Shown here: in pieces, positions 1,797 to 61,871 of the stretch
How positions within the stretch are numbered: the first letter of the stretch is position 1
How the letters are laid out: each line of letters starts with the position of its first letter
DNA from: Verrucomicrobiota bacterium
GTDB taxonomy: Bacteria > Verrucomicrobiota > Kiritimatiellia > RFP12 > UBA1067
Reading direction: 5' to 3'
Length of the DNA stretch: 64,000 bases
Assembly (NCBI GenBank): GCA_023269675.1
Contig: JAHFSX010000008.1
Span: 85,999-149,998, forward strand
Position numbers and translations under genes: made by a program
The notes under the pieces: model-generated
Database searches by the model: none
What the model was told of the DNA's origin: nothing
What the model saw: only the letters and a program-made list of their open reading frames with translations

Positions 1797-3173
1797 CTAC
1801 TTCCTCTCCGCTCCCGCAGGTACGACCGCGTAGGCGTGCGGCACCGGCTTGCGACTCGCCAGCGCGTCTTTCTCGAAAGCCCCCACCTTTTTGCGGAGTT
1901 CGCCGTATTGGGGCCAGGTCTTGATGTAGTTGAGCGCCATCGCGGCGCTGTACTCCGTCTTGTCCTTAAAGCCGTCGTAGTGCGCCTGCACCGCAGCCGG
2001 GTCCTCCACGTTGATCTTGTAGTGGCTCTGCATCCAGCGCCGCGTGTTCATCAGGCTGCACGCCTGAGCCTCAGCGTTCCGACGCTGCTCGTTGAGTTGA
2101 GCAACGCGGCGCGCCTGCTTGGCCTGCGGCGTCGCGGCGTTGGATGCGAGGTTGACGCCCTTCGCCAGTTCGTCCGCCGCATACCGTCCCACAAAACCGC
2201 CGTCGATCTTCAGCTCATACGCTCCTGCCGCAAGGCCGGTCACCGACAGCAGTTCCTGGTTCAGGTCCTTCTCGATCGGCAGCAGTTCCAGCATCGGCTT
2301 GGCCGCCGGATCGACCGGAAAAGGCAGGGCCTTCTCCAGCACCGTGAAGGCCACGCCGCCGTCCTTCCTGGCGACGGACGCCACCTCCGCGTTGACGCTC
2401 TCCGCCGCGCGGCCCGCGGCCGCGTCCACCGTAACCTTCGAGACCAGCGACGGCGCGCCCTGCGTCTTCAGGAACAGCCACGTCATCATCAGGTACCCCG
2501 GCGCGCCCGGATGCACGCGGTCGCCGCCCACGATGGTCCACTTCGGGTCTTTTTTCTGCTGTTCCAGATTGAGAGCCGTCATCGGCCCGTGGAAATCCAC
2601 CACGGTCCCGTTGTTCTTCGCCGCCAGCTCCCGCACGATCGCCGCACATTTCCCGAGGCCCTCGTTGCATCCCGGCTGGTTATTGTTCTTTTCAAGCACC
2701 ACAGTCTGGTCAAACGGCGACGGCGTGAGGAAGAACAGCTTCGGCTCTCCCGCCTCGGCGCGGATGCGGCCGACAACCTTCTCCATGTTTCCCCGGTACC
2801 CGTCGAGCGCCTGCTTCTGCCCCCTGATCTGGTCTGCGGTTGGCGCTGCCACATAATAGCCGCGCCCGACATCGTTCATGCCGAACATGATGGCCACCGA
2901 GGTCGGCTTCTGATCGATCACGTCTTCCTGCAGCCGGCCGAGCGAACCTCCGGCCGAATCGCCCGAGCGGCCCGCGTTCGCGAACCGGATCGTCCGCTCT
3001 GGAAAACGGGTCAGGTAATAGTCCGCGAGCATCGTCTGGCAACGCCCGCCGGCCGAGATGCTGTCCCCCAGGAAACACACGGTCTCGCCGTCCTTGAACA
3101 CCTCGCCGCGCGCGGCGCTTCCGACCGTCATGACGCCTAACAGCAAAACGGCAACTGTAACCAATCTGTGCAT
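1797..3173 (-). CDS. SGNH/GDSL-family hydrolase (second copy) with signal peptide
   Basis: 458-aa ORF; MHRLVTVAVLLLGVMTVGSA signal; motifs CFLGDSISAGG, GMNDV, DRVHPG. Confidence 0.8.
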   Translation of the reverse strand: MHRLVTVAVLLLGVMTVGSAARGEVFKDGETVCFLGDSISAGGRCQTMLADYYLTRFPERTIRFANAGRSGDSAGGSLGRLQEDVIDQKPTSVAIMFGMNDVGRGYYVAAPTADQIRGQKQALDGYRGNMEKVVGRIRAEAGEPKLFFLTPSPFDQTVVLEKNNNQPGCNEGLGKCAAIVRELAAKNNGTVVDFHGPMTALNLEQQKKDPKWTIVGGDRVHPGAPGYLMMTWLFLKTQGAPSLVSKVTVDAAAGRAAESVNAEVASVARKDGGVAFTVLEKALPFPVDPAAKPMLELLPIEKDLNQELLSVTGLAAGAYELKIDGGFVGRYAADELAKGVNLASNAATPQAKQARRVAQLNEQRRNAEAQACSLMNTRRWMQSHYKINVEDPAAVQAHYDGFKDKTEYSAAMALNYIKTWPQYGELRKKVGAFEKDALASRKPVPHAYAVVPAGAERK

Positions 3174-3289
3174 CGCATTCCCCCTTATTGATTTGAAGCA
3201 ACCCGTTCGGCACAGCCGCGGCCTCCGTGCTCACGGAAGACGCGGCTCGCCATCAACACGCACTCCTTGCCGGCTTCACGCGAACCGTC

Positions 3290-6200
3290 CTACTGGACCA
3301 GTATCAGCGTGCCCGTGGGCCGGACACGCACATAGACGGTGCCGTTGTCAGCATAGGCGCTCATGTAAAGCCGGCCGGCATATTTCGACTCACCTGAAAC
3401 CCAAAGCTTCAGATTTTCCGCCCCGGAGATCGTATCGTAAGTGAAGATCGCGGTGCAGCCGACAACCGGCGTCACGCCCGGCCACTCGATCAGACCCGCG
3501 CCCCCGACGGTCAGCTTGCCGTTCACGTCGACCGTATGGTCTGGGCTCACCCGAACGGTGACGCCGCCGGCGAGGGCGAGGTCGCCGTTGACCGTCAGCG
3601 TTCCGGCGTCCGGATCAGACAGGTCGACGAGGCCGGTGACCGACAGCGAACCGCCGCTGACCGTGCCGCCGCCCACGAGCGCGCGCGTGTTCTGGGTGAA
3701 ACCGCCCAACTCCAGCGTGGCGCCGACCGCGACGCGCACCGTGTCGGCCGACGCGCCGGACAAGGGCATGTAGAGCAGATTGGTCGCTGCGCGGCCGAAC
3801 CACTTCCAGCCGAGATAGGCTTCGACCGCGAGGCGCTCGTCATCGGAGATCGAACGGTTGAAGATCAGCAGCTCGGCCAGGCGTTGGCCGCCGTTCCGGC
3901 TCCCAATGGTGGTGGGACGGTCAGCGGCGAGCGTGTCGACGCGGGCGTTGCCGGTGGTGTGGTTTTCGATGATCTGGTAGGCCCCGTTCAGCACGTTGGA
4001 GGCCACGGTGGGGTTGGGCAACAGAGCCCCGTCGATGTAGGTCCGGCCACCAATGACTTGGCCGACCGCGTTGAACCCGTACAGCCGGTTCTCGGTGGTG
4101 ATCGGTTCGAGGTTGCCGTTGACGCGGGGGCCCCGGTGCCAGTCGGAGATTTGCTGGTCACTGACGATGTTCGTGTTGCCGAGCAGGAAGCCGCCGCCGT
4201 TCTGGCTGCCCAGCACCCAGAAGACAGAGCGCGCGTCGGGGATCTGACGGTCGAGCATCATGTAGGGGCTGGTGCCGTAGGTGCCGAAGTCGACCGTGCG
4301 CCGGCCGCCGAGCGCCGCGTCGACGTAGTTCGAAGGGGCCAGTCCCGGCGCGTAGGCGTAGCGTCCATTACCCCGAGGGTCACGCCATTCCGTCACCTTC
4401 CCGGCTCCGTCCATGGTCAGGGTGTTGGTGCGTGCGGCGTCGAGGTTGATCACCAGTTGATTGGTCACGGGCGTGTTAAGGCCAAGGGTTCCTGCGGTGT
4501 AGCGCAGGGTGCCCTGCCGAACATTCAGCGTGCCGTTGAACCCGACCGTGCTGCCAGCGATGTCCAGCGTGCCAGTGCCGCTCTTGACCAAGCTGCCGGA
4601 ACCTGCGAGCCAGCCGACGCTGTTGGTCTGTCCGGCGGCGAGTTCAAACGCGGTCGTCGCGGCGAGTGTCAGGCCGGGAAGGGTCGGCGCGCCAGGCGCG
4701 GTGTAGCCGTGGACGGCCCGGTTGAACCACTTGGCCGACAGATAGGCCTCTACGGTCTTGCGGTCCGCATCGGCCAGCGGCTTGTCGTAGACGATCACTT
4801 CGGCCAGACGCTGGCCGCCTGTGTTGCCGCCCGCGCCGTTGTGGGCGAAGCCATCGACCGAAATGTCGCCGCCAGTCAGGAACGAGACGAGCTGGTAGCC
4901 GCCGCTCAGGCCCTGCACGTTCGGGAAGACGGGCAGGCCGTCGATCCACGCGAAGCTGCGGCTGAGCCACATCCGCTCCCGCTCATTGTACGAATTGTCG
5001 GAGGTATAGGCATCGAACAGAGGCGAGGACGCGTTGTTATAGGTGCGGGAAAAGAGCGAGTTGTTAACGCTGGAGCCGAGCAGGTAGCCGCCGCCGTTCT
5101 GGCTGCCCAAGACCATGAAGACCGTGCGGATGCCGCCGGTCGGCGCGGTCCAGACCAGGTAGCGTCCGCTTCCCGCGACATCAAAGTCCACGACCGGCAG
5201 CGCGTTCAGCGCGCTGTTGACCAGCAGGGGTGCTTTGCTCAGCCCGTTGGTGGCGGCTCGCGACGGATTCGAGGCGTCTTCCCAACGGGTGACCTTCAGC
5301 GTGGCGGCATCGATCGTCATCGTGTTGGTGCGTGATGCGTCGAACCAAGCCGCGTATCCCGCCAACGGCTGGGTGGGCGCAGCGCCCAAGGATTTGAGCA
5401 CAAAGGCGCCGCCGTCGCCGCCGAGCGAACCGGTAAAGGAGGCCAACCCGTTGAGGGTCACCTTGCCGGGGCCGGTCTTGGTCACGGTTCCCGTTCCCGT
5501 GAGCGTGTCGAGCGCCAGATCGTTTTCAGCCCTCAGCCCGACATTTCCCGCCACCTCCAGTGTTGCCAATGCGGGCCGGGCAGGCATCCACTTGGCCCGT
5601 AGCGCGGCCTCGGTGTCCAGCCGCTCCTGTTCGGTCAGGGTGCGGGTGTAGAGGATCAATTCCGCCAGACGCATGCCGCCACTGCGATCATACATGGCGC
5701 GGTCCTGTCCGATCCGGCTCGCGGCGAAGTTGGAGCAGCGGGCGGAGATGATTTGGTACCCGCCCGACATCGGCGTCGCCAGGGTGTCGCACAGGCGCCC
5801 GTCCACCCAGGTGGTCATGCTGTTCGCGCACAAGCCGGCCTCCACCTTGATCCAATCGGGTGACCGGTAGGGAGACCCGCCGCGGTGGAAGTTCGGGGCG
5901 ATGTCCGGCTCGCACAGCAGGAAGCCGCCGTTGTTCTGGCTGCCATACACCCAGAACACGGTCAAGATGCCTGTGATCCGCTGGCTCCAGTCCAGGAACT
6001 GGCGAGAGTATTGCGAGCCGAAGTCCACGACCGGCAACCCGTTCATCGCGTTCCGGATCAGAGCCGGCGGCCGCGCGTTGACGTTGGTGATCATGGCGCT
6101 GATCGTCTTGCCGTCCGCATCGCTCCAGGCGTACACGCGGTCATTGGTGAGTGTCAGGGTGTTCAAAGCCGAGGCATCCAGATGAAAAGCCGGCGAAGCG

Positions 6201-7714
6201 GCGACCTGACCCGAACCGGTGCTTGAGGCCGCGTTCGTCAAGGCGAGCGTGCCTTCGGTTAGTCGAAGGGTTCCGGGGTAAGAACTGCTCTCCTCCAGGC
6301 GCAGCGTGCCCGCGCCGGTCTTGGTCAGTTTGCCCCTGCCCTGCAACTTGCGCACCGTGGTGTCGCTGTCCGTGGACGCCGTCTGCAGGGTCGCATCGGT
6401 CACGACCTGGACATGGCGGAGGTCCGAGGTTTTGGCGAGCCACTTGTCGTACAGGTAATGCTCGACCTGCCGGCGCTCGGAGTCGGAGAGCATCCGGTCA
6501 TAGATGATCAGCTCGGCCAGGCGCTGGCCGCCGCTGCGTCCCGCCCCGAAACTGCGGTCGAAAGCCAGTCCGTCGGCGGTAAGGCCCGAGGATTGCACAA
6601 TGCTCACGAGATCATAGCCGCCTGAAAGTCCGGTGCCCCAGCCGTTCACGCTCTGACCGTTCAGGTAGGAGGTTGAGAGTCCGCTGTCATATCCCCAGAT
6701 CGGGTCATCCGCCAGCGCGCCGAGGCTTCCGCCGCGGTGGAAGTTCGCCACGCTCCTGCCGCCGAGCAAGAACCCGCCGCCGTACTGACTTCCAATGACC
6801 CAGAAGACCGAGCGGACGGTCGAAAGCGTGGCTGCCCAGGTCATGTATCGGCCGGAACCGAAGGTGCCGAAATCCACGGCAGGCATAACGCCGAGTTCGT
6901 TGTCGAGGCGCAGGGGGCAGTTGTTGGTGGCGGCAGCTCGCGCGTGATAGCCGTTGCCCGAGAGGTCGCGCCACTCTAAGACCTGGATACCGTTCGTGAA
7001 GGTGAACGAATCCGTCCTGCTCGCATCAAGCCGCAGGAGGGGAGATGCCACAAGAAGCGGCGGATAGTTGGTGTCTGCGAGCGCGGCGGGCAGGGTCTTG
7101 ACCGTGCGGAGCGTTCCGTTTCCGATGTACCAAGAGCCACCCGCGAAGGAGGCGGGGTTTGTCACCGTCAGCGTGCCGCCGGCCGCGCTGCTAAAGCCGG
7201 AGAAGCCTACCCCCTGCAGGTTGGGCAAGGTGCTTTGACCGCCCGGGAAGTCGAAGAACAGGCCGCCCGGATTCCGGATGATCGTCGTGCCGGAAAACCG
7301 GTTGGTGTTCTGGATCATGAACATGCCGTTTACGAGGAGGTTGGACTCGACCGTTAGCCGGGACTTGAGGTAGAACTGCGTCGTCGAGTCGGATTTCAGC
7401 TCGGCGGGTGAACCGTGTAAGAGAAACTCGCCGCTCTTGAAAGTCACCTGACTGTTATATTGGTTCTTGTTATCGATTTTCCCCAGCAGCCAAGGCGAAT
7501 CCTGCTCAGCCAGATTCACGGTGAACGCGAAGTTCGTGGCGAAGATCGTGACCTTGGCGTTCTCACCGCTGGCGGGAACGCCGTTTGTCCACTGGGTCGA
7601 ATCCGTCCAAATGACATTGTTGCTGACCGCCTTTAGGAATCCGTCCCCGGCCGACAGCCAGAACGGAACACAACACGCCGCGGTCCAACCCCACGCTCTC
7701 ATCCAGTTTCTCAT
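3290..7714 (-). CDS. Giant secreted protein (1474 aa) with four repeated LamG/concanavalin-like lectin modules
   Basis: Four ~330-aa repeats each containing DFG..GSGRY..W....RSVFWV.GSQ.GGGFLLG and GGQRLAEL(I/L)IY(D/N)R.LSD.ER..VE.YL..KW (Laminin_G_3-type jelly-roll signature); N-terminal signal peptide; C-terminus TGTLILVQ. Confidence 0.85.
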   Translation of the reverse strand: MRNWMRAWGWTAACCVPFWLSAGDGFLKAVSNNVIWTDSTQWTNGVPASGENAKVTIFATNFAFTVNLAEQDSPWLLGKIDNKNQYNSQVTFKSGEFLLHGSPAELKSDSTTQFYLKSRLTVESNLLVNGMFMIQNTNRFSGTTIIRNPGGLFFDFPGGQSTLPNLQGVGFSGFSSAAGGTLTVTNPASFAGGSWYIGNGTLRTVKTLPAALADTNYPPLLVASPLLRLDASRTDSFTFTNGIQVLEWRDLSGNGYHARAAATNNCPLRLDNELGVMPAVDFGTFGSGRYMTWAATLSTVRSVFWVIGSQYGGGFLLGGRSVANFHRGGSLGALADDPIWGYDSGLSTSYLNGQSVNGWGTGLSGGYDLVSIVQSSGLTADGLAFDRSFGAGRSGGQRLAELIIYDRMLSDSERRQVEHYLYDKWLAKTSDLRHVQVVTDATLQTASTDSDTTVRKLQGRGKLTKTGAGTLRLEESSSYPGTLRLTEGTLALTNAASSTGSGQVAASPAFHLDASALNTLTLTNDRVYAWSDADGKTISAMITNVNARPPALIRNAMNGLPVVDFGSQYSRQFLDWSQRITGILTVFWVYGSQNNGGFLLCEPDIAPNFHRGGSPYRSPDWIKVEAGLCANSMTTWVDGRLCDTLATPMSGGYQIISARCSNFAASRIGQDRAMYDRSGGMRLAELILYTRTLTEQERLDTEAALRAKWMPARPALATLEVAGNVGLRAENDLALDTLTGTGTVTKTGPGKVTLNGLASFTGSLGGDGGAFVLKSLGAAPTQPLAGYAAWFDASRTNTMTIDAATLKVTRWEDASNPSRAATNGLSKAPLLVNSALNALPVVDFDVAGSGRYLVWTAPTGGIRTVFMVLGSQNGGGYLLGSSVNNSLFSRTYNNASSPLFDAYTSDNSYNERERMWLSRSFAWIDGLPVFPNVQGLSGGYQLVSFLTGGDISVDGFAHNGAGGNTGGQRLAEVIVYDKPLADADRKTVEAYLSAKWFNRAVHGYTAPGAPTLPGLTLAATTAFELAAGQTNSVGWLAGSGSLVKSGTGTLDIAGSTVGFNGTLNVRQGTLRYTAGTLGLNTPVTNQLVINLDAARTNTLTMDGAGKVTEWRDPRGNGRYAYAPGLAPSNYVDAALGGRRTVDFGTYGTSPYMMLDRQIPDARSVFWVLGSQNGGGFLLGNTNIVSDQQISDWHRGPRVNGNLEPITTENRLYGFNAVGQVIGGRTYIDGALLPNPTVASNVLNGAYQIIENHTTGNARVDTLAADRPTTIGSRNGGQRLAELLIFNRSISDDERLAVEAYLGWKWFGRAATNLLYMPLSGASADTVRVAVGATLELGGFTQNTRALVGGGTVSGGSLSVTGLVDLSDPDAGTLTVNGDLALAGGVTVRVSPDHTVDVNGKLTVGGAGLIEWPGVTPVVGCTAIFTYDTISGAENLKLWVSGESKYAGRLYMSAYADNGTVYVRVRPTGTLILVQ

Positions 7715-20625: not shown

Positions 20626-21603
20626 ATGCCTGATTCCGCCACGCCGCTGCTCGAAATTCACGGGCTCAAGACCTGGTACCCGATCAAAAAAGGTGTTCTC
20701 GCCCGCACCGTCGGCTTCGTGCGCGCGGTGGACGGCGTGGACCTGACCTTGAACCGCGGCGAGACCCTCGGCATCGTGGGCGAATCGGGCTGCGGCAAGT
20801 CGACCCTCGCCCGCACGATCCTGCGCCTTGAGAAGGCCCGCGAGGGGACGGTCACGCTCGGCGGCCGGAACGTCCTGGCCCTGCGCGGGGCGGGCCTGCG
20901 CGCCTTCAGGCGGAAGGTGCAGGTGGTCTTCCAGGACCCCCACGCCTCGCTCAACCCGCGCCACACCGTGCTCGACCTGCTCACCGAAGCCATGCTCGTC
21001 CACGGCCTCGTCACGCGCGAGGGCCGCCGCGATGCGGCCGTGCGCCTGCTGTCCGACGTGGGCCTGCCGCCCGACGTGCTCGACCGCTATCCCCACGCCT
21101 TTTCGGGCGGCCAGCGCCAGCGCATCTGCATCGCCCGCGCCCTGGCCCTCGGGCCGGAGCTGCTCATCTGTGACGAGGCCGTCAGCGCGCTGGACCTCTC
21201 GGTGCGCGCGCAGGTGCTGAACCTGCTGCAGGACCTCAAGGCGAAGCACGGGCTCTCCTACCTCTTCATCACCCACGACATCGGCGTGGTGCAGCACATC
21301 TCCGACCGCATCGCCGTCATGTACCTCGGAAAGATCGTCGAGACCGGCCCGACCGACGACGTGCTGGGCAAACCCGCCCACCCCTACACGCGCCTGCTGA
21401 TGCGGGCGGTGCCCCGCATCGGCACCCCCCTGCCGGAAAACGATGCCGCGGCCGCGGAAGCGACCCCCGCCCCCGATCCCGCCGGGTGCGCCTTTGCCCC
21501 GCGCTGCCCGCTGGCCGACGCGGCCTGCAGGCGCGCGTCACCCGCGCTCGAAGCGCACGGCGCAGGCGCCGCGCGGCGCTGCGCCTGCTTCAAGGCCGGC
21601 TAG
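20626..21603 (+). CDS. ABC transporter ATP-binding protein, oligopeptide/dipeptide (OppF/DppF) type; no cognate permease or binding-protein genes nearby
   Basis: Walker A GESGCGKST, signature LSGGQRQRICIARAL, Walker B LLICDEAVSALD, plus Opp/Dpp C-terminal extension (GKPAHPYTRLLM). Confidence 0.9.
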   Translation: MPDSATPLLEIHGLKTWYPIKKGVLARTVGFVRAVDGVDLTLNRGETLGIVGESGCGKSTLARTILRLEKAREGTVTLGGRNVLALRGAGLRAFRRKVQVVFQDPHASLNPRHTVLDLLTEAMLVHGLVTREGRRDAAVRLLSDVGLPPDVLDRYPHAFSGGQRQRICIARALALGPELLICDEAVSALDLSVRAQVLNLLQDLKAKHGLSYLFITHDIGVVQHISDRIAVMYLGKIVETGPTDDVLGKPAHPYTRLLMRAVPRIGTPLPENDAAAAEATPAPDPAGCAFAPRCPLADAACRRASPALEAHGAGAARRCACFKAG

Positions 21604-21801
21604 AGCATTTCCACTTTTAGTGTGGCCACTTTGTGTAAGCGGTTAAAACCTGCCTCCCATTTGATTCATCTTACCACCAAGACTCGAAGAACACGGAGTC
21701 CACCAAGAATAAACTTTGTGTTCTTGGTGGACTTTGTGTCTTGGTGGTGAGATGTTTTCTGGACACAAAACGGCTACACCGTTAATTAAAATGCTCTAGC
21801 C
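21598..21801. repeat. 204-bp AT-rich nested palindromic element between convergent genes; candidate bidirectional terminator or MITE
   Basis: Perfect 13-bp terminal inverted repeats GGCTAGAGCATTT (21598-21610 vs 21789-21801), each containing the TAG stop of the flanking gene; inner IRs accaccaagac/gtcttggtggt (21673-21683 / 21738-21748) and gtccaccaagaa/ttcttggtggac (21698-21709 / 21721-21732, 11-nt loop). Confidence 0.6.
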
Positions 21802-23169
21802 CAGGTGCGAGAGCGCGGGCTTGCCGACCGCGTACACGTTGAATCCCAACGCGTGCAGCGCCGCATGATCCACGCAGTTGCGCCCGTCGAAGAGAAACGC
21901 AGGCTGCCGCATCCCGGCGTACACGCGCGCGTAGTCCAGCGTGCGGAAGCAGCTCCAGTCGGTCAGCACCGCCACGGCGTCCGCGTTCCGGGTCGCCTCG
22001 TAGGGATCGGCTTCGAAAAGGACGCGCCCCTCCAGATCCGCCAGGTCCTGCCGCGCATTCGGCAGCGCCTGCGGATCGCAGATCACCACCACAGCATGCT
22101 CCTCGACCAGCATCCGCGCCACGCGGATCGCGGGGCTTTCGCGCGTGTCCCCGGTGTCGGCCTTGAACGCGAAGCCCAGCACGGCGATGCGCTTGCCCGC
22201 CACCGTGTTGAACATGGCGTGCAGGATGTTCGCCACAAAACGGTCCTGCTGCCAGTCGTTCAAGGCCACGACCTGCCGCCAGTAATCCGCGGCCTCTTGC
22301 AGGTTGTAGGATTCGCAGAGGTAGACCAGGTTGAGGATGTCCTTCTTGAAGCAGGAGCCGCCGAACCCCACGCCCGCCTTGAGGAACTTCGGCCCGATGC
22401 GCGTGTCCATGCCCACCGCGTGCGCGACCTCCGTGATGTCCGCCTCGGTCGCCTCGCACAGCGCCGAAAGCGCGTTGACGGAGCTGACGCGCTGCGCGAG
22501 GAAGGCGTTCGCCGCCAGCTTGGAGAGCTCGCTCGACCAGACATTGGCGGTGAGAATTTTGGCGCGCGGCACCCAGTGCGCGTACAGGCCCACAACCGCC
22601 GCGAGCGCGGCCTGGCCCGTCGGCGTGGCGTCCGCGCCGATCAGCACGCGGTCGGGGCTCTCCAGGTCCGCGACCGCCGTGCCCTCCGCGAGGAACTCGG
22701 GGTTGGAGAGCACCTCGAAGTGGTGCGGCGTGCGTCCCGAGTGCAGGATGCGCGACATGGCCGCCGCGGTCCTCACCGGCAGCGTGCACTTCTCGATGAC
22801 GATCTTGTCACCCTTGGCGCAGTCGTGGATCAGCCGCGCCGTCTTCTCCCAATACTGCAGGTCGGCCGCGCACCCCGCCCCGTGCCCGAAGGTCTTGGTC
22901 GGCGTGTTGACCGCCACGAAGATGATGTCGTTGTCCTCGATCCCCTGCTGGATCTCGGTCGAAAAAAACAGGTTCCGGCCGCGGCACTGCCGCACGACCT
23001 CGTCGAGACCCGGCTCGTAAATCGGCAGGGTGTCGGAGTTCCAAGCCGCGATGCGCTGCGCGTTCACGTCGACGACCGTCACGCGGATCTCGGGGCACTT
23101 CAGGGCGAGCATGGCCATCGTGGGGCCGCCCACGTAGCCCGCGCCGATGCAGAGGATATGTTGATTCAT
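21796..23169 (-). CDS. ugd: UDP-glucose 6-dehydrogenase
   Basis: 457 aa; N-terminal Rossmann MNQHILCIGAGYVGGPT; conserved GFAFKADTGDTRESPA; full-length UGDH architecture. Confidence 0.9.
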   Translation of the reverse strand: MNQHILCIGAGYVGGPTMAMLALKCPEIRVTVVDVNAQRIAAWNSDTLPIYEPGLDEVVRQCRGRNLFFSTEIQQGIEDNDIIFVAVNTPTKTFGHGAGCAADLQYWEKTARLIHDCAKGDKIVIEKCTLPVRTAAAMSRILHSGRTPHHFEVLSNPEFLAEGTAVADLESPDRVLIGADATPTGQAALAAVVGLYAHWVPRAKILTANVWSSELSKLAANAFLAQRVSSVNALSALCEATEADITEVAHAVGMDTRIGPKFLKAGVGFGGSCFKKDILNLVYLCESYNLQEAADYWRQVVALNDWQQDRFVANILHAMFNTVAGKRIAVLGFAFKADTGDTRESPAIRVARMLVEEHAVVVICDPQALPNARQDLADLEGRVLFEADPYEATRNADAVAVLTDWSCFRTLDYARVYAGMRQPAFLFDGRNCVDHAALHALGFNVYAVGKPALSHLG

Positions 23170-23221: not shown

Positions 23222-23340
23222 TCTAATTATGGCCGATACCGCCTGAAGGCGGGACTACAAACGCTCCATAAACATGCGGTGTTCCGTTTGTAGTACCGGC
23301 TTTAGCCGGAGTCTTTGCATGCCTGACGGCCATAATTAGA
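23222..23340. repeat. REP-like intergenic element with 14-bp TIRs and internal hairpins
   Basis: TIRs TCTAATTATGGCCG (23222-23235) / rc at 23327-23340; hairpin ccgcctgaaggcgg (23239-23252); ctacaaacg/cgtttgtag IR; cgtttgtagtaccggctttagccgg matches the family core seen at 30867-31078 and 41811-41880. Confidence 0.55.
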
Positions 23341-27072: not shown

Positions 27073-27167
27073 CGTTACAGGTTACTTGTTACACGTTACC
27101 GGTTGAAAATCTTTGACCCTTTCTCAAACGTGCAGCCTGTAACGTGTAACCTCCGACGTGTAACCTG
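27073..27167. promoter_or_regulatory. Inverted + direct GTAAC-motif repeats between fmdB and epmA (candidate operator/attenuator)
   Basis: Perfect 12-bp IR gttacacgttac (27088-27099) / gtaacgtgtaac (27139-27150), 39-bp spacer; aggttac (27079-27085) vs gtaacct (27147-27153 and 27159-27165); tandem acgtgtaacct x2. Confidence 0.4.
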
Positions 27168-30750: not shown

Positions 30751-30866
30751 CGTACCACGCGGGTTCGTCGCCTTTCAAACGAAAAGGCCGGAAGCCCGCA
30801 GTCCCGCAGCCCGGGGCGCATCCGCGATGAGGTGCCTTTGTGTAACACGGCGTCGGCGGCTGCCCG

Positions 30867-31078
30867 GGGCCGGCACAAGCCGGTACAACATGCGGGCAAG
30901 GGCGCTGGCGTCATTTAAGATGGTTCACGGCGCTCTGGGCCGGCACAAGCCGGTACAACATGCGGGCAACGACGCCTGCGTCATTTAAGATGTGTCATGG
31001 TGCTCTGGGCCGGCTAAAGCCGGTACTACATACGGGACTCGGGCATGTTGTACCGGCTTTAGCCGGCCCCGGTCATGG
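30867..31078. repeat. BIME/REP-like cluster: 3 x 70-bp tandem units, each carrying a gccggcNNaagccggtac hairpin; the third unit closes into a 20-bp perfect palindrome
   Basis: Units begin at 30867, 30937 and 31007 (gggccggcacaagccggtacaacatgcgggcaa...); third unit ggccggctaaagccggtaca (31008-31027) pairs with tgtaccggctttagccggcc (31049-31068), 21-nt loop. Confidence 0.65.
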
Positions 31079-34598: not shown

Positions 34599-34667
34599 AC
34601 GCCCTCCCCCGTTTTTGTGTTCTGATCATACCCTATCCGAGGCCGGTGTCAAGTGCAGGGCCGCGCG

Positions 34668-34933
34668 GGGCGCATCCCCGTTTCATTGACTAACGTGGGC
34701 AAAGCCCGCAACCCAATTGAACCGCAGATGGCCGAATACTGAACCGCAGATTGTCGAAGTTAAGCTTCCTCTACGCAATTGAAGCTCTTTCCTTCATGAT
34801 TCGCCAATCGTCATTCGTCAATCTGCGGTTTGTTCAGGTACAAAACAACGTGGTTTTTATTGTCGGTTTCGAGCCGTAAGGCGCTACCCGCACAGGTTAT
34901 CCCCCGACAAGGCAGTGAAACGGGGATGCGCCC
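34668..34933 (+). mobile_element. MITE-like element, copy 1 (266 bp), with 18-bp hairpin-forming terminal inverted repeats; ~93% identical over ~215 bp to the inverted copy at 61463-61785
   Basis: TIRs GGGCGCATCCCCGTTTCA (34668-34685) and TGAAACGGGGATGCGCCC (34916-34933); internal aaccgcagat x2 direct + atctgcggtt inverted; ~45% GC; sits 191 bp upstream of the MFS transporter ATG; contains spurious ORF MFRYKTTWFLLSVSS. Confidence 0.7.
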
Positions 34934-35123
34934 GGCCGCGCGGACCAAGGCCCGTTCACGCGGCCCCCTGAGGCGCCGGGTCGCCGGCAAAAGGAGGCGC
35001 AGGCGCCGAACGGCAGATTTGGGGGTTTGTAAACCGGAAAAAAAGGTGTATACTGCCGCCCATTAAATGGTTGAGGCCGGATTAAGCCGCCCGACCGTTC
35101 TGACGTGAAAGAGGGAGAGTGTT

Positions 35124-61347: not shown

Positions 61348-61462
61348 GACTTCCGCTCCGTTTTGCGCCTCATTCTTTCGACCGTCACCACGGTCCCAAG
61401 ACAAGACGTATTGCGACATAGAATAGTGCTTACGTGGCCTTTTTTCAACACCGATGCTAAAC

Positions 61463-61785
61463 GGGCGCATCCCCGTTTCACTCACTACCCGCGCCCGGCG
61501 GTCGCGGGCCACCTTGCGCGGCACCTCTTTCAAGGGTGGTGCGCGACCTTGTCTCTCGGGCGCGGTTAGTGCCTTACGGCTCGACACCGACAATAAAAAA
61601 CACGTTGTTTTGTACCTGAACAAACCGCAGATTGACGAATGACGATTTGCGAATCATGAAGGAACGAGCTTCAATTGCGTGGAGGCAGCTCTACTTCGAC
61701 AATCTGTGGTTCAGTATTCGGCCATCTGCGGTTCAATTGGGTTGCGGGCTTTGCCCACGTTAGTCAATGAAACGGGGATGCGCCC
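61463..61785 (-). mobile_element. MITE-like element, copy 2 (323 bp, inverted relative to copy 1), same hairpin TIRs
   Basis: TIRs GGGCGCATCCCCGTTTCA (61463-61480) and TGAAACGGGGATGCGCCC (61768-61785); rc of 61565-61785 aligns at ~93% to 34668-34885; extra ~57 bp of divergent sequence next to the gene-proximal TIR; 115 bp upstream of the isomerase start. Confidence 0.7.
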
Positions 61786-61871
61786 GTTTGCGACGTGCGC
61801 GTAACCGGCGTCCCGCAAAATGAAAGGCACGCCGCGAAAAAAGTTCACACGCGCCGCCGGCACAGCCCGCC

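Follow-up and report, generated by a model that had tools for sequence, protein, structure and literature searches.

The stretch of DNA analysed here (64,000 nucleotides of Verrucomicrobiota bacterium contig JAHFSX010000008.1, hereafter the window) contains a 204-bp palindrome (21598–21801) between two convergent genes, encoding an OppF/DppF-type ABC ATPase and a UDP-glucose 6-dehydrogenase (ugd), and the ends of this palindrome hold the stop codons of both genes. Most of the palindrome, the 194 bp at 21603–21796, is very probably a miniature inverted-repeat transposable element (MITE) derived from an IS630-family (Tc1/mariner-type) insertion sequence (IS) that is widespread in bacteria of the Planctomycetes–Verrucomicrobia–Chlamydiae (PVC) group. 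A first-pass annotation of the sequence had proposed a strong bidirectional intrinsic terminator, a structured small RNA, or a MITE that had inserted at the gene ends and re-created them. The last of these proposals is upheld by several lines of evidence: the orthologous site of a close relative is empty and carries a single TA where the element is flanked by two, the terminal inverted repeats (TIRs) are common to the element and to IS630-family ISs, many other copies of the family exist, and the 194 bp have no coding capacity, with no open reading frame (ORF) found inside them.

Structure and composition of the junction palindrome

The palindrome is perfect over its terminal 13 bp, where GGCTAGAGCATTT (21598–21610) pairs with its exact reverse complement AAATGCTCTAGCC (21789–21801), and it encloses two nested inverted repeats, an outer one (ACCACCAAGAC, 21673–21683, complementary to GTCTTGGTGGT, 21738–21748) and an inner one (GTCCACCAAGAA, 21698–21709, complementary to TTCTTGGTGGAC, 21721–21732) that closes on an 11-nt loop (21710–21720). 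With a repeat finder the outer arms reach 39 nt (74% complementary) and the inner arms 41 nt; the two inner stems are perfect (12/12 and 11/11). GC content falls to 0.41–0.46 within the element, against 0.66–0.83 in its flanks (about 45% for the element and about 66% for the window). The terminal repeat, the nested repeats with their loop and the GC content of about 45% had all been described by the first-pass annotation and recur here at the same positions. The annotation had also proposed folding both strands and looking for further pairs of the terminal repeat; in the 64-kb window the search returns only the two known exact copies of the 13-mer (three matches with up to two mismatches, against 0.57 expected), and each strand folds into a single near-full-length hairpin, with minimum free energies of -103 and -94 kcal/mol and z-scores of -12.5 and -11.5, none of 200 shuffled sequences being as stable. 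The palindrome is far beyond chance.

The 13-bp repeat is a composite of three host bases (GGC/GCC), the two bases of a duplicated TA and 8 bp of element TIR (GAGCATTT/AAATGCTC). Read from the left, the palindromic host context GGC (21598–21600) is followed by the first copy of the TA target-site duplication (21601–21602) and by the element proper, GAGC...GCTC (21603–21796), a non-autonomous IS630-family derivative whose ends align with those of the family. Its left arm, GAGCATTTCCACTTTTAGTGTGGCCACTTTGTGT (21603–21636), was delimited by the repeat finder and by end alignment, and its right arm, the reverse complement GAGCATTTTAATTAACGGTGTAGCCGTTTTGTGT (21763–21796), by BLAST and end alignment; the second TA (21797–21798) and host GCC (21799–21801) complete the structure. 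Both TA copies are assigned from the single TA of the empty site and from the invariant TA flank of the family. The centre of the element is occupied by a nested palindrome (21667–21754) with four CCACCAAGA/TCTTGGTGG motifs, found only in this long variant. The insertion of an inner MITE into an outer one is rejected as its origin, the inner palindrome having no TA flanks.

The two host triplets are the C-terminal glycine codons of the flanking genes. The ABC ATPase gene (20626–21603, plus strand) terminates in ...AAG GCC GGC TAG AGCATTT (protein ...CFKAG*), and its TAG (21601–21603) consists of the host TA and the first base of the element, G. On the other strand, ugd (21796–23169, minus strand) terminates in GGC TAG (protein ...PALSHLG*), and its TAG, the reverse complement of 21796–21798, consists of the host TA and the complement of the last base of the element, C. 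With G as the first base of the element and C as its last, each duplicated TA regains a G on the coding strand, yielding TAG for both genes. The earlier statement that both genes take their stop from the repeat hence stands as to position, both TAGs lying within the 13-bp repeat, but it does not stand as to origin, since the TA of each is duplicated host DNA and only the G is contributed by the element.

Both genes were identified by their ORFs and homologues. The ABC ATPase carries the Pfam domains ABC_tran and oligo_HPY, its homologues are annotated as oligopeptide/dipeptide ABC ATP-binding proteins, and the named homologues of both proteins come from metagenome-assembled genomes (MAGs) of Kiritimatiellia. 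The exact ugd protein (457 aa) is also encoded on a metagenome contig in ENA whose genes follow in identical order, likewise with a gap of 192 bp, and an exact-protein lookup of the ABC ATPase returned no record. The ABC ATPase gene is an orphan, with no adjoining permease or binding-protein genes, yet it is convergent with ugd in several Kiritimatiellia relatives (20626–21603 in the window; 5470–6447 and 2758–3735 in comparison loci L003 and L004).

An IS630-type family in PVC-group genomes

The long form of the window and a short form found at the orthologous junction of several relatives have in common CAAAACGGCTAC-N15-GCTCTAG at one end. A scan of a species-representative genome collection with the pattern CAAARYGGCYAC-N15-GCTCTAG returned 73 matches, about 60 of them in MAGs labelled Lentisphaerae or Verrucomicrobiota. 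These matches are spread over numerous contigs of single genomes (about 14 in Lentisphaerales CSMAG_2903, 8 in AS10tlH2TH_169 and 7 in Umea_bin-05090), and many copies are found within about 150 bp of a contig end, as would be expected if assemblies break at the repeat. The distance to the partner end is about 135–156 bp in many copies, 274 bp in one and about 1000–1013 bp in six. Two of the copies of about 1 kb (L069 and L053) contain two consecutive ORFs, a helix-turn-helix (HTH) part and a 201-aa DDE part (...LVFLDES...VVLDNL...PAYSPDLNPIEMMWSKVK...), which match the NCBIfam IS630-family transposase model NF033545 (129.9 bits, cutoff 100) and Pfam DDE_3 (E-values of 6e-32 and 7e-34). The division of the transposase into an HTH ORF and a DDE ORF is also seen in the other ISs of about 1.0 kb (L020, L032, L044 and L054), an arrangement of reading frames that suggests a frameshift, and the DDE ORF terminates within the distal inverted repeat (...ACGYSII*). 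Metagenomes contain great numbers of transposases of this type, most of them on contigs about 1 kb long.

The limits of the element and the length of the duplication can be read from the flanks of family copies. The base following GCTCTAG in the matches is any of the four, and, with the final G of the pattern imposed on the right-hand flank, the target was deduced from left ends only, which had been located by their likeness to the right arm alone, with no flank required. In the N-TA|GAGC flanks of these left ends, C-TA and T-TA occur six times each and one flank is mutated; of the 14 copies judged without a flank requirement, 13 keep TA. As only TA is invariant there, the element is GAGC...GCTC and the duplication is TA, a hallmark of elements of the IS630/Tc1-mariner type. 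The presence of CTAG at both window ends might otherwise point to an IS5/PIF-Harbinger-type MITE with a duplication of 4-bp CTAG or 3-bp TNA, but TTA and CTA are equally frequent at the unbiased left ends of the family, the transposase of the full-length relatives belongs to the IS630 family and is not of the IS5 type, and a 4-bp duplication of an empty CTAA would not yield CTAG on both sides, so that an origin of this kind is extremely improbable. Alignment of the ends argues for the IS630-type assignment as well. Sixteen ends, taken from the window element, the short form, four ISs and two 155-bp MITEs, can be aligned gaplessly; the invariant positions are TA-GAGC, T10 and CC26-27, and a T.TAGCC block is nearly invariant. 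The right arm of the window element matches transposase-proximal IS ends at 31/36 (L032) and 30/36 (L069) positions, and in BLAST it is 88% identical over 33 nt to the IS ends of L023, L032, L045, L047, L068, L070 and L077.

Several observations weigh against derivation from this family. The scan pattern was itself derived from the window and L003 elements, and about 10 of its 73 matches, in unrelated phyla, are probably due to chance, while the listed homologues of the IS transposase carry no taxon names. Both arms of the window element are of the transposase-proximal type, carrying the proximal-type extension GCCRYTTTGTGT, unlike the build of the 155-bp MITEs, whose one proximal and one distal end make them resemble simple internal deletions. 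Searches of the window, of 94 loci and, in a single exact-pattern scan, of metagenomes yielded no second copy of the 194-bp variant, and a search for transposase similarity that covered only the 64-kb window found none within it. That metagenome scan, with GCCGTTTTGTGT-N10-40-CCACCAAGA, gave 8 matches, all chance occurrences in unrelated sequence, and the inner palindrome (21667–21754) has no match in the other loci or in the scan. Among PLSDB plasmids the element is unmatched and its flanks have only generic ABC-gene matches, and viral contigs contain no match to the family. Multiple copies exist of the 155-bp form, of the short form and of the family overall; the 194-bp variant is known from one copy, and its mobility would follow from its ends only.

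Orthologous junctions and probable repeated use of one TA

The state of the junction in relatives was read from fetched contigs with close ugd or ABC ATPase orthologues. The closest relative, L002 (ugd 93% identical in amino acid sequence; flanks 87–90% in nucleotide sequence; 79% at 4-fold sites), has the empty site GGCTAACC, which in context reads ...TTCAAGGCGGGCTAACCCAGATAC.... Its junction, TGC TTC AAG GCG GGC TAA CC CAG ATA C, contains a single TA (GGC-TA-ACC), and the ABC ATPase stop (GGC TAA) and the ugd stop (GGT TAG) fall on the same four bases, forming a 4-bp tail-to-tail overlap; the same overlap appears in the P0122 contig (ABC ATPase 86% aa), as read from gene calls only. In L003, L004, L005 and L007 (ugd 90% aa; 58% at 4-fold sites between the L003 group and the window), the TAs enclose a different, 97-bp element, GGC-TA-GAGCGGATTAAG...GGACGCCTaggggAGGCGTCC...CAAAACGGCTAC...GCGCTC-TA-GGCC (5374–5470 in L003), which is the short form of the family. 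A further locus, L093 (ugd 92% aa, with identical ...PALSHLG* and the same upstream InhA-like gene; 72.5% at 4-fold sites), has at this TA an end belonging to the family (...GAATCCGCTC-TA-GCC), with an arm sequence that differs from that of the window and a contig that ends 46 bp into the element. L094 (ugd 90% aa) lacks an element at the junction, where the two genes are set apart by a conventional spacer of 78 bp containing two small GC hairpins, and in L001, L006 and L009–L011 the ugd or ABC ATPase gene lies in another neighbourhood, which makes these loci uninformative on the junction. Three of the junction states, empty, short element and third variant, occur in related populations from a single ENA sample, ERZ22680748 (L002, L007 and L093, respectively).

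The ugd protein has 457 aa and the same C-terminal register in all compared junction loci, empty or filled, and the ABC ATPase ends in ...CFKAG* both in the window and at the empty site of L002, so that protein lengths, where comparable, are unaltered by the insertions. The first-pass annotation had suggested comparing orthologous junctions for the absence of the element and for a difference in the gene C-termini; the element is indeed absent in L002, where the ABC ATPase C-terminus and the C-terminal register of ugd are the same.

The diversity of elements at the junction bears on the number of insertions. The short form found there is about 93% identical to copies at other loci (L018, L019 and L039, in a Lentisphaeraceae-labelled MAG), far above the neutral 58% between the window and L003, which indicates that the short form is a young member of a subfamily of its own, rather than an orthologue of the long form. 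The L093 arm agrees with the window element at 21/36 positions when right arms are compared and at 24/36 when compared with the window left arm; this is below the neutral 72.5%, though not decisively over 36 nt. It is therefore likely that at least two, and probably three, independent insertions have taken place into the same TA. A single ancient insertion that predated the split of the window, L093 and L003-group lineages, later diverging into three variants and precisely lost in L002 and in the P0122 lineage, would explain why all variants occupy exactly the same TA and why their arms at this site, 53–69% identical, fall within the neutral range (58% and 72.5% to the window for L003 and L093). 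Such a history is nonetheless unlikely in view of the high identity of the short form to copies elsewhere, of the right arm of the window element, which is nearer to IS ends from a different lineage (31/36) than to the L093 (21/36) or short-form (25/36) arms, and of the inner stems of the window element, which are still perfect. It would also require that the loss in L002, the closest relative, where the 4-bp overlap is intact, restored the site exactly. When Tc1/IS630-type elements excise by cut and paste, they often leave a footprint behind.

For the window element, the following sequence of events is proposed. In the ancestor, the convergent ABC ATPase and ugd genes would have overlapped by 4 bp, with a common palindromic C-TA-G (or C-TA-A) serving as both stops, and the pre-insertion site would have read GGC-TA-GCC, comparable to the GGC-TA-ACC of L002, with one TA for both stops. 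A transposase supplied in trans would have bound the TIRs, of about 26–34 nt, and excised the element, staggered cuts at the shared TA would have allowed its insertion, and repair would have duplicated the TA. The rebuilding of the two stops can be followed base by base in the sequence; the transposition event itself is an inference. With the TAG stops and protein lengths kept, the insertion is neutral for coding and could hence persist where the two genes had no intergenic DNA between them. The stops now stand 192 bp apart, and a read-through transcript would be expected to carry a very stable hairpin, which by its predicted fold may affect 3'-end stability, processing or convergent transcription but does not constitute a canonical terminator.

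A terminator or RNA function for the hairpin finds little in the sequence to recommend it. A scan for terminator-like sites (a stem followed by a T-run), limited to loops of 3–8 nt, found none on either strand between 21300 and 22100; the stems of the element are A+T-rich, and the sequence past the inner hairpin keeps pairing, with no U tract. The strong bidirectional intrinsic terminator of the first-pass annotation is not supported, in view of this result and of the absence of the element in the closest relative. A later exaptation of the element as a bidirectional terminator or 3'-end stabiliser, kept for insulating formerly overlapping convergent genes, would be in keeping with an extremely stable hairpin on both strands placed exactly between such genes, and small repeats, some of them terminator-like (SPRITE), are known to accumulate in these positions (PMC3049150). 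Tolerance of insertions explains this enrichment equally well, however, and, besides the missing T-run, the specific sequence is not conserved, being absent from L002 and P0122 and replaced by GC hairpins in L094 and by other variants in L003 and L093, all of which makes exaptation a distinctly unlikely outcome. The structured small RNA of the first-pass annotation and a chance palindrome have the strong predicted structure in common with the MITE and carry almost no weight beyond it: no promoter-like site was found at the element, no Rfam family reached its threshold (the best match, mir-4782, a generic hairpin, scored 43.1 bits against a gathering value of 100) and orthologues show no conservation, while z-scores of about -12 and membership in a transposase-bearing repeat family exclude chance. 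Most likely, the element is a selfish insertion, neutral as far as coding is concerned.

Stop codons, known elements and significance

The association with stop codons extends to the family. With ORFs of at least 80 codons as a proxy for genes, the boundary TA+G is the exact stop of such a frame (often of 300–1300 codons) at 25 of 67 ends (37%), compared with 5 and 12 in the control frames, and 22 of the 25 stop-abutting ends belong to MAGs not labelled as unrelated phyla. Under a rough null drawn from the same loci, stop-codon TAs make up about 8% of tolerated TAs (intergenic plus stop-codon), and against this value the enrichment is significant both for ends (p<1e-10) and for complete copies (8/22; p about 2e-4). 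A long ORF on both sides is seen in none of the 22 complete copies elsewhere, and the double stop of the window is a special case, two genes ending on one TA. The enrichment may reflect selection, through loss of insertions upstream of genes, or a Y-TA target preference. In the window, TA is about 2-fold depleted (990 vs 1865 expected), and CTAG is found 9 times, two of them made by the element, against about 202 expected from base composition (about 22-fold depleted). A transposase preferring CTAG or YTAR would consequently have few tolerated targets. It is possible, if rather doubtful, that the family homes to stop-codon TAs (Y-TA-R, the best being the CTAG of tail-to-tail overlaps), and that its G...C termini are an adaptation ensuring TAG on both strands.

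IS630 and ISY100 insert at TA, duplicate it and move by cut-and-paste (PMC2170065). The PVC family resembles these elements, of Shigella sonnei and Synechocystis respectively, in its TA duplication and in the match of its full-length members to the IS630-family transposase model, and it departs from them in that the window element has no transposase and the PVC ISs, of about 1.0 kb, have theirs in two consecutive ORFs. According to a title by Tenzen and Ohtsubo from 1991, IS630 reportedly shows preferential transposition to the "TA in the 5'-CTAG-3' sequence", whereas the flanks of the PVC family suggest Y-TA and not strictly CTAG.

A close parallel in kind is RUP (repeat unit of pneumococcus), a 107-bp non-coding MITE with pairing ends that inserts at TA and whose TIRs match an IS630-family IS (PMC2229807); IS630-Spn1 presumably mobilises it, and it is over-represented between convergent genes (PMC3049150). 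Short non-coding sequence, IS630-type TIRs, TA insertion, paired ends and a position between convergent genes are all found in the window element too. RUP, however, belongs to Firmicutes, hosts unrelated to Kiritimatiellia and the PVC group, and is not known to be related in sequence; the window element has about twice its length, with extra nested palindromes and both arms of the transposase-proximal type, and its long variant is known from one copy, whereas RUP is high-copy in one genome. Small repeats and ISs in general pile up between convergent genes, where a repeat can supply the stop of a gene, and BOX elements encode the stop at the extreme 3' end of 36 pneumococcal genes with no evident truncation (PMC3049150). 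BOX is thus alike in being a small repeat that provides a stop codon at a gene end, but it is modular and unrelated, and the stops of the window are made of host TA and one element base, on both strands at once.

The Correia/NEMIS elements of Neisseria are MITEs of about 100–155 bp that occur in length variants and whose transcripts have stable secondary structure (PMC2229807). The PVC family likewise has MITE length variants and transcripts predicted to fold stably. Correia/NEMIS elements, too, are flanked by a TA duplication, and RNase III cleaves their transcripts; no transposase partner is known for them, whereas such a partner is evident for the PVC family. The end of the short variant, TA-GAGCGGATTAAG, recalls what we take to be the Correia end, TATAGTGGATTAA, a likeness to be followed as a lead and not counted as evidence.

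The window contains other repeats. A second, unrelated MITE-like pair (34665–34936 and 61459–61789), in opposite orientation, has TIRs of 27–29 nt (GGGCGCATCCCCGTTTCAYTSACTA) and is about 90% identical over about 250 nt, one member having about 60 extra nt near an end. A hairpin family resembling repetitive extragenic palindromes (GTACCGGCTTTAGCCGG and variants) has 7 copies against 0.16 expected (at 23293, 30870, 30940, 31010, 31050, 41819 and 41856), apparently placed in the gaps that separate long ORFs; the copies often form inverted pairs or clusters, four of them lying in 30861–31075. Lastly, a GTTAC-rich imperfect inverted repeat (27074–27164), with 32-nt arms that are 75% complementary, lies just upstream of ORFs that begin near 27.1 kb and overlaps their start.

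The presence of two stop codons inside a perfect inverted repeat is hence explained by a simple and known mechanism, and the sequence should be annotated neither as a terminator nor as a small RNA. The element is of an ordinary kind in a neat position, and the IS630-type IS/MITE family to which we assign it, previously unnamed, is now documented in MAGs of Lentisphaerae, Verrucomicrobiota and Kiritimatiellia. This family breaks assemblies at its copies, and its copies often sit exactly on stop codons, which is relevant both to gene calling and to MAG assembly in these groups. If homing to stop codons were true, insertion would be invisible to the proteome and the scarcity of CTAG would funnel independent insertions into a few sites, accounting for three variants in one TA among related Kiritimatiellia. 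Should the association with stops reflect target choice and not selection, it would exemplify a "safe-haven" strategy of a transposon in genomes that are compact and GC-rich.

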